Origin: Escherichia phage vB_EcoM_G17
Length of the DNA: 64,000 bases
Sequence record: MK327931.1
Strand: one strand, 5' to 3'
The notes under the pieces were generated by a model that searched no databases, was not told where the DNA came from, and worked only from the letters and a program-made list of their open reading frames with translations. Both the position numbers and the translations under genes were made by a program. Numbering within the stretch: position 1 is the first letter of the stretch; every line of letters begins with the position of its first letter. Positions 56,458 through 56,961 of the stretch are shown piece after piece.

Positions 56458-56961
56458 TTATTTTACTTTGACAGTACAGGTTACCTTTTTACCTTGGAAC
56501 TCGACTTTTTGAACATATGAAACGTTACCCAAACGATTAACGAATGATTCCATTGCATTAATATTTGCTTGAATTACTGATGCATTAGTTCCACGTCCTG
56601 AAGTTTTCATTACAATATGTACATGTTTTCCTTCATCAAGGAATTTTTCAGCACTTTTTGCTTTAATCTGCAAATCATGCTCTTGTGTACCAAAGTTGAA
56701 TTGAATCTCTTTAATACTCACGGCATTTTGTCGTTGTTTTTTAAGAGAAGCCTTTTCAGCTTGCTTCAACTCATATTTGTATTTGTTAAGATCTGTAATT
56801 TTGACAGCAGGTTCATCACCTGCACCAATAACCACCAAATCCAATCCTTGATTTTCTGCTAAAGTAAGTGCTTTAGAGATTGCCATGACCTCACTTGCAC
56901 CTTCCGTAACAAGACGTACAGTTTTTGCGGTGATTTCGTTATTGGCAATAATAGATTTCAT
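56458..56961 (-). CDS. infC: translation initiation factor IF-3 homolog
   Basis: Both IF3 domains recognisable: [10 protein letters not shown]...[22 protein letters not shown] and [18 protein letters not shown]...FLDEGK. Confidence 0.75.

Follow-up and report, generated by a model that had tools for sequence, protein, structure and literature searches.

The window (the whole stretch of DNA that was analysed, 64,000 nucleotides of Escherichia phage vB_EcoM_G17) carries a minus-strand gene whose product is, judging from its sequence, a true two-domain homologue of the bacterial translation initiation factor IF3. We propose, with a probability of about 0.7, that this protein is a functional, full-length IF3 that would act on the 30S subunit of the host, would be made early and without autoregulation, and would raise or maintain the IF3 activity available for phage mRNAs. 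The elements of the gene on which this proposal is built are as follows:

56458..56961, minus strand: IF3 (infC-like) coding sequence from the open reading frame list, 167 aa, with its ATG at 56961-56959 and a TAA stop
56749..56943, minus strand: IF3 N-terminal domain, aa 7-71 (PF05198), TM 0.77-0.80 against 1tif and the N-terminal domain of 6o6d
56725..56790, minus strand: linker helix, aa 58-79 (from DSSP on the predicted model), basic (pI 10.0), with Y63 (E. coli Y75)
56467..56721, minus strand: IF3 C-terminal (ribosome-binding) domain, aa 81-165 (PF00707), TM 0.86 and rmsd 1.7 against the C-terminal domain 1tig
56590..56607, minus strand: loop K119-T120-S121-G122-R123-G124, aligned with R-F-R-G-R-E of bacterial IF3
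56972..56975, minus strand: Shine-Dalgarno sequence GGAG, 10 nt upstream of the IF3 ATG
57006..57034, minus strand: predicted sigma70 promoter TTGACA-N17-TATAAT, a 12/12 match to the consensus, some 45 nt ahead of the IF3 start

The sequence-only reading had described a 167-aa IF3 homologue extending over both domains, and the profile searches bear this out. The two IF3 domains are found in order and each scores above its Pfam gathering threshold, IF3_N over aa 7-71 (5.8e-16, 58.9 bits against a cutoff of 26.9) and IF3_C over aa 81-165 (8e-14, 51.8 bits against a cutoff of 34.8). The infC equivalog TIGR00168 of NCBIfam, the kind of profile match to infC that had been suggested as a check, is reached with 110.4 bits against a cutoff of 60 (E = 7.5e-32). 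PHROG 9787 ("translation initiation factor") aligns aa 1-167 with profile positions 1-167 of 168 (6e-71), and the sequence matches in the PDB include the IF3 chains of E. coli (3e-17) and T. thermophilus (4e-17) in ribosome complexes. All of the IF3 motifs quoted earlier lie in the minus-strand translation, and the plus-strand translation of 56458..56961 contains many stops. An exhaustive HMMER scan of 1.84 billion cluster representatives returned 5,660 matches at E <=1e-3, only 6 of them below 1e-30; the family is thus very large, and the phage IF3 is one of its divergent members.

The predicted structure leads to the same family. An AlphaFold2 model (mean pLDDT 93.8, 105-sequence alignment) has the order of elements of IF3, namely an alpha/beta N-domain, a long basic helical linker and a beta-alpha-beta-alpha-beta-beta C-domain, and all 22 Foldseek matches in the PDB at E <=0.001 are bacterial or mitochondrial IF3s, with TM scores of 0.69-0.79 against ribosome-bound full-length IF3 and of 0.77-0.86 against isolated domains. 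With E. coli InfC (b1718) the phage protein shares the two-domain fold, the linker, the charge distribution (pI of phage and E. coli IF3, respectively, 4.6 and 5.1 for the N-domain, 10.0 and 10.1 for the linker, 9.56 and 9.57 for the C-domain) and the residues R25, Y75, D106, K110, G132 and R133. It differs from InfC in being only 31-35% identical, in lacking the 12-residue N-terminal tail, in having a linker that is 2 residues longer, in the replacement of R99, R131 and E134, and in a 3-aa insertion after the GR motif.

We mapped residues through a 178-sequence alignment, in which the comparison set outside the Rak2 clade is drawn from the 150 representatives that resemble the query most. In the N-domain, R16 (E. 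coli R25) is an arginine in 27/29 Rak2-clade sequences, and K54 stands at the position of E. coli R66, where lysine is the majority state across the IF3 family. R25 of E. coli IF3 is invariant in bacteria, and R25 and R66 touch the elbow of the initiator tRNA (PMC9723500). Y63, which corresponds to the critical linker residue Y75 of E. coli IF3, is kept in 27/29 clade members. In the C-domain, D96 (E. coli D106) and K100 (E. coli K110) are each present in 29/29 clade members, K102 takes the place of E. coli R112 with a lysine that is again the majority state of the family, and G122-R123 (E. coli G132-R133) is conserved in 29/29 and 28/29 members, respectively. D106 is universally conserved, and ribosome binding and dissociation require D106, K110 and R112 (PMC3401457). 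The proposal to inspect the C-domain residues that contact the 30S subunit thus gave a positive answer, since D106, K110, R112 (as K) and R133, by which the C-domain of E. coli IF3 is fixed to the 30S platform, are all kept. We considered several other substitutions as marks of the phage protein and set them aside: Y107L, R112K, R116K and R66K are majority states across the IF3 family and are not phage-specific, and the loss of R99 is a weak candidate for a clade-specific change, S, T or G being found there in about 40% of other IF3s.

Pairwise Nei-Gojobori comparisons with progressively diverged relatives gave dN/dS values of 0.08, 0.08 and 0.17 at dS 0.33-1.18, and the IF3 protein is 100% identical in phages that share 96-97% DNA identity over the surrounding 3.5-kb region; the gene is under strong purifying selection.

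The gene also carries its own expression signals. The window contains 9 perfect sigma70 promoter matches, all on the minus strand, where 0.17 would be expected by chance, and they fit the RpoD-like early promoters described for phage CBB (PMC5259590). At the one upstream of IF3, the -35 hexamer overlaps the stop codon of an upstream 64-aa ORF. Both hexamers are kept, with a diverged spacer, in EcMJ and A4 (TTGACA-N17-TACAAT in A4), and sigma70-like hexamers stand at the same position in GAP32 (TTGACT/TACAAT), XbC2 (TTGACG/TACCAT) and RaK2 (TTTACT/TATAAT). The GGAG ribosome-binding site is retained in GAP32, XbC2, RaK2 and four Asteriusvirus relatives, and the IF3 start is ATG in every genus checked. 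A TAA lies in frame 48 nt before the ATG, with no start-like codon in between, and so excludes a longer product. The infC gene of E. coli starts with ATT and belongs to the thrS-infC-rpmI-rplT operon, whereas the phage gene has its own predicted sigma70 promoter within a block of replication and virion genes; neither of these traits of the cellular infC locus, the non-canonical start and the ribosomal-protein operon, is found at the phage IF3 locus. The AUU start of E. coli infC is the basis of IF3 autoregulation, and with AUG instead of AUU the phage IF3 should escape it. Taken together, the predicted fold, the retained residues, the selection and the expression signals support an active, ribosome-binding IF3, as far as sequence and model can speak for activity.

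The sequence-only reading had further placed the gene in a cluster with tRNAs, a sigma factor, and ClpS-like and GroES-like genes. The positions of these genes, and of one more neighbour, are:

55899..56444, minus strand: ClpS-like gene, 181 aa, starting 13 nt after the IF3 stop, with an AAGGA ribosome-binding site of its own
55282..55827, minus strand: KTSC-domain gene, 181 aa (Pfam KTSC, 6.3e-14), third in the string IF3 - ClpS-like - KTSC
45388..45714: Cpn10/GroES-like gene, about 11 kb from IF3
13.9-18.2 kb: seven tRNAs, 38-43 kb from IF3
1689..2654: sigma-70-family gene, about 54 kb from IF3

The ClpS-like gene does adjoin IF3, but it is the sole neighbour among those named, the others lying 11-54 kb away, so that the idea of a translation and chaperone cluster next to IF3 was overstated. 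What surrounds IF3 is a block of replication and virion genes that includes gyrase/topoisomerase II, a Dda-like helicase, RNase H, DHFR and RNR. The immediate gene order (helicase, a virion protein of about 185 aa, the 64-aa ORF, IF3, ClpS-like, KTSC, virion protein) is common to Asteriusvirus, Alcyoneusvirus (RaK2) and Mimasvirus (GAP32 and Xanthomonas phage XbC2), and the KTSC gene occupies the same position in Sharanji, GAP32, XbC2, RaK2, UE-S1 and A4.

The ClpS-like gene is probably co-transcribed with IF3, and it is itself conserved (dN/dS 0.03-0.12; phrog_15940). Its assignment to ClpS is marginal, with a Pfam ClpS score of 24.7 bits against a cutoff of 23 (2e-5), 13-19 bits against cutoffs of 112-159 for the ClpS equivalogs of NCBIfam, and eight weak PDB matches that are all ClpS, with E 0.17 at best. 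In this weak PDB alignment the protein has P, A and N at the positions of the N-degron pocket residues D36, M40 and H66 of E. coli ClpS.

We also considered that IF3 might be packaged in the virion and injected, an idea that the phAPEC6 virion mass-spectrometry table does not support. This table contains the flanking products gp162c and gp167c, and gp163c-166c (KTSC, ClpS-like, IF3 and the 64-aa ORF) are absent from it. The absence of the IF3 product, gp165c, next to flanking products that are present points to a protein that acts inside the infected cell.

Over positions 55000-58500 the window matches Escherichia phages vB_Eco_slurp01 and Sharanji with 100% identity and PBECO4, 121Q, SP27 and others with 97-99.9%, and as a whole it is 99.95-100% identical to Sharanji. 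These relatives are Asteriusvirus members, that is, Rak2-like jumbo myoviruses of about 350 kb, whose records already carry the ORF under the name "infC / translation initiation factor IF-3". The IF-3 genes of the Rak2-like phages (slurp01 infC, Sharanji gp294/WNN14575.1, 121Q gp47, phAPEC6 gp165c, PBECO4, RaK2 ORF153, GAP32_313 and CBB_318) encode proteins that are identical (100% aa) or orthologous (52-99% aa) to the present one and lie in the same gene order; in short, they are the same gene, with nothing different about it. That phage IF3 genes are uncommon, as had been claimed, holds numerically, with matches in 94/50,697 phage records, bacterial contamination among them. The infC of "Acinetobacter phage MD-2021a" proved not to be a phage gene, its thrS-infC...rpmI context marking it as bacterial contamination, and the unannotated Staphylococcus, Listeria and Enterococcus "phage" records of 2-7 kb with IF3 are probably contamination too.

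Full-length IF3s are also encoded by Agrobacterium phage Atu_ph07 (AUZ94813.1), Sinorhizobium phage Phosso and the huge phages of Al-Shayeb et al. 2020, phages of 460-740 kb. The IF3s of Atu_ph07 and Phosso are 33-42% identical to the one described here, are annotated with GTG starts, and lie beside a Clp-system (Clp ATPase) gene and near topoisomerase II genes. In a neighbour-joining distance tree on cluster representatives they fell outside the Rak2-type group in 199/200 bootstraps, suggesting that IF3 probably entered jumbo phages more than once, with Atu_ph07 and Phosso as separate acquisitions. The Rak2 clade itself was delimited by an arbitrary cut-off of 50% identity or more and is not an exact split of this tree, the smallest split that holds it adding the metagenomic sequences P0029 and P0038.

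A recent capture from an enterobacterial host can be dismissed: E. coli IF3, at 31-35% identity, scores 66 bits where each of the best 150 cluster representatives scores at least 74; a pattern-limited scan of 185,579 GTDB species genomes returned ordinary chromosomal IF3s only, at 35-38% identity; and the best BLAST matches recorded by the depositors, Hydrogenobacter for GAP32 and Megasphaera for RaK2, belong to unrelated phyla. The nearest relatives outside the Rak2-like phages are metagenomic proteins at 44-51% identity, some of them on contigs of 330-620 kb. On these comparisons, the IF3 gene is an old resident of the Rak2-like phage lineage.

One part of the C-domain departs from the bacterial pattern. 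S121 sits at the position of E. coli R131, the equivalents of F130 and E134 are replaced too, and a three-residue insertion follows the loop. All 29/29 Rak2-clade IF3s have a non-basic residue at position 131, where 118/142 others have R or K, so that about 17% of other IF3s also have no basic residue there and R/K is typical without being strictly defining. In E. coli IF3, R131 lies in an exposed loop; a contact between this residue and the mRNA has been proposed, and it takes part in the discrimination of start codons (PMC3401457). Since RFKGRE and LRPVTD, the motifs of bacterial IF3, are still present in the proteins of Atu_ph07 and Phosso, the change in the R131 loop is a derived trait of the Rak2-like clade. 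With the loss of R131, the replacement of F130 and E134 and the insertion, the phage IF3 may differ from the host IF3 in proofreading; the remodelling suggests that its sensing of mRNA and start codon has been tuned, and we treat the loss of R131 as a lead, not as evidence, for an altered inspection of start sites.

Among the 121 complete CDSs annotated in the stretches of Sharanji that cover the window, in which an ATG bias of the gene caller is possible, the start codon is ATG in 118, GTG in 3 and TTG in none, and an SD-like 4-mer precedes 89/121. The survey of start codons that had been suggested thus speaks against a reliance of the phage on unusual starts and shows no visible need for relaxed start-codon discrimination; a stringent IF3 would rather be to the advantage of phage messages. 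The window encodes no initiator tRNA. We considered the sole tRNA with a CAT anticodon (15596..15685) for this role and discarded it on account of its paired G1-C72, an anticodon stem without three consecutive G-C pairs, and its class-II long variable arm.

Our working model brings these elements together. The host RNA polymerase would transcribe IF3 early, probably along with the ClpS-like and KTSC genes, and translation from AUG would leave synthesis of the phage IF3 free of IF3 autoregulation. The conserved C-domain would then bind the host 30S subunit while the N-domain would touch the elbow of the initiator tRNA; with an identity of only 31-35% between the phage protein and E. coli IF3, productive binding to the E. 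coli 30S subunit is presumed here. The additional IF3 activity could maintain the pool of free 30S subunits, speed the formation of initiation complexes and provide proofreading on phage mRNAs throughout a long infection. If the phage IF3 kept start-codon discrimination, it would also depress the AUU-initiated host infC, and the phage IF3 would progressively replace that of the host. We infer both consequences, escape of the phage gene from autoregulation and repression of the host infC, from the established biology of E. coli infC.

Other roles can be envisaged for the same protein. One that we regard as tentative is that it mainly maintains the ribosome pool, through anti-association and recycling from idle 70S and 100S particles, in a slow-replicating jumbo phage that has to translate in stressed or stationary cells. 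In line with this role, the C-domain residues on which binding to the ribosome and dissociation of its subunits depend (D106, K110 and R112 as K) are conserved, and the same phage genome reportedly encodes an S30EA/HPF-type hibernation protein and other ribosome-related factors (PMC11895373); Iyer et al. have proposed that phage IF3 may rescue ribosomes or assist phage translation (PMC7824862). Such a role is, however, a sub-function of canonical IF3 that overlaps with our main explanation and is inseparable from it by sequence data, and the HPF-like gene lies outside the window and is unlinked to IF3. A somewhat more doubtful possibility is an IF3 of altered fidelity, which would keep 30S binding, change the discrimination of start codon or mRNA, displace host IF3 and shift start sites through relaxed or re-targeted proofreading. 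The derived loop of the clade, at a site of proposed mRNA contact, is what favours it; the almost exclusive use of ATG by the phage genes, the conservation of Y75 and of R25 and R66 (as K), the N-domain residues that enforce fidelity towards start codon and initiator tRNA, and the about 17% of other IF3s that are also non-basic at position 131 weigh against it. We consider it unlikely that these traits combine in a specialised factor with changed sensing of mRNA or start codon that is expressed early, is free of AUU-based autoregulation, displaces host IF3 and biases initiation towards phage messages, perhaps as part of a takeover module with the ClpS-like and KTSC genes.

A decoy is much less probable. 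The protein could be a dominant-negative mimic of IF3 on the 30S subunit, or a replacement for host IF3 removed by a defence system or by proteolysis through a phage Clp adaptor. Throughout the Rak2-like genera IF3 is tightly linked to the ClpS-like gene, and in Atu_ph07 and Phosso it is linked to a gene for a Clp ATPase, which makes a module that degrades a host factor and supplies the phage counterpart conceivable. Yet the conservation of both domains and of the contacts with the tRNA elbow, under strong purifying selection, is more in keeping with an active factor than with a blocker, the match of the neighbour to ClpS is marginal with different residues at the D36, M40 and H66 positions, and no defence is known to target IF3, our literature search having turned up none. 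That the gene is a decaying passenger, captured from a host and devoid of a phage role, is hardly credible: its dN/dS is 0.08-0.17, its intact ORF, promoter, SD sequence and ATG are kept in Asteriusvirus, Alcyoneusvirus and Mimasvirus, including the Xanthomonas phage, and a close cellular donor is lacking among the bacterial IF3s compared (66 bits for E. coli IF3 where the best 150 cluster representatives reach at least 74, and 35-38% identity in the GTDB scan). The conservation data, as read from the sequences, effectively refute this reading already. We retain as our main proposal an active IF3 that works on host ribosomes to the benefit of phage mRNAs.

The presence of IF3 in this phage is a correct finding and one already known, and the meaning first proposed for it, a reprogramming of initiation-codon fidelity or start-site selection, is a generic hypothesis that has been published for jumbo and huge phages. 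The CBB paper listed IF3 homologues also in GAP32, 121Q, PBECO4 and Rak2 (PMC5259590), the comparative review of Iyer et al. mentions phage IF3 with the suggestion noted above (PMC7824862), the IF3s of jumbo and huge phages, including those of Al-Shayeb et al. 2020, were proposed to intercept or redirect host translation, and the Sharanji paper states that the function of IF3 in phages "cannot be definitively stated" (PMC11895373). The promoter, the contrast between ATG and AUU, the signature of the R131 loop and the dN/dS values given here do not appear in PMC5259590, PMC7824862 or PMC11895373. Our literature search turned up no experiments on a phage IF3 of any kind, and an RNA-seq paper on the related phage PA5oct does not mention IF3.

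The annotation of this gene goes back to the first Rak2-like genomes, and the gene figures in comparative reviews, so finding it again adds nothing in kind. What the present analysis does is to turn a generic annotation into specific predictions, namely early expression from sigma70 promoters, escape from autoregulation, kept contacts with the ribosome and the tRNA, a clade-specific change in a loop and a three-gene unit. The host, E. coli K-12, with its complete IF3 genetics and in vitro systems, is convenient for a first functional test of a viral IF3. More broadly, translation factors encoded by phages are among the traits that make the boundary between large viruses and cells less sharp.

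Genes of the Clp system repeatedly adjoin the IF3 gene, both in the window (55282..57034, minus strand) and at other IF3 loci that we compared (L004-L006; L007, 2480-3001; L008, 3992-4495). In all Rak2-like genera, a ClpS-like gene lies directly downstream of IF3, and in the Agrobacterium phage Atu_ph07 and the Sinorhizobium phage Phosso, a gene for a ClpX-like Clp ATPase lies directly upstream. Topoisomerase II genes are found near the IF3-Clp locus in the Rak2-like phages as well as in Atu_ph07 and Phosso. The linkage could be due to chance, to common ancestry of the locus, or to a functional link between IF3 and the Clp system. 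In the window, the Clp-related neighbor is:

55899..56444, minus strand: ClpS-like gene, a marginal match to ClpS

Its product carries an N-terminal extension of ~70 aa and, when aligned with E. coli ClpS, has P, A, and N at the positions of D36, M40, and H66 of E. coli ClpS, a pattern that makes classical N-degron binding by this protein doubtful. The gene is under strong purifying selection, with a dN/dS of 0.03-0.12.

Exact matches to the promoter consensus TTGACA-N16-18-TATAAT occur nine times in the window (at positions within 4221..57034) versus 0.17 expected, all of them on the coding (minus) strand. Eight of the nine are located between 4 and 39 kb, among small ORFs that have no known function and presumably serve early host takeover; the ninth is predicted by sequence match to drive IF3.

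An IF3 of 187 aa representing a metagenomic cluster (P0038) is 44% identical to that of the window and falls with the Rak2-type IF3s in a neighbor-joining tree. Members of this cluster occur on many metagenomic contigs, the longest of 619 kb, and one member, on a 192-kb contig, carries an E. coli label. The cluster may mark a further, uncharacterized lineage of huge phages with a Rak2-type IF3. Some "phage" records that match IF3 seem to be contaminating bacterial sequence. One of these, from Acinetobacter (CAKLQH020000014.1, L009), contains thrS-infC...rpmI together with metabolic genes. The 2-kb Listeria and Enterococcus entries and the Staphylococcus entry (OR847555.1, PQ520322.1, and OR844993.1) are probably of the same kind.

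Further features of the window are two tRNA genes and a sigma factor gene:

15596..15685, minus strand: tRNA called Met, anticodon CAT, 90 nt, encoded CCA
15693..15784, minus strand: tRNA-Ser, anticodon ACT (A34)
1689..2654, minus strand: sigma-70-family gene, GTG start

The long variable arm of the CAT-anticodon tRNA is of class II, resembling those of Ser and Leu tRNAs, and a CAU anticodon on a class-II body is unusual. The tRNA is not an initiator, as it forms a G1-C72 pair and lacks a GGG/CCC run in its anticodon stem; it may be a Met tRNA, an Ile tRNA if modified with lysidine, or a tRNA of another identity. Where the phage tRNA-Ser has ACT, the usual bacterial anticodon is GCU. Editing of A34 to inosine in this tRNA is conceivable, given that a tRNA-specific adenosine deaminase encoded by the phage is reported in the Sharanji paper (PMC11895373).

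The sigma-70-family gene is among only three CDSs annotated with a GTG start in the surveyed region. If the phage IF3 modulated the use of non-AUG starts, this gene would, speculatively, be a candidate target.
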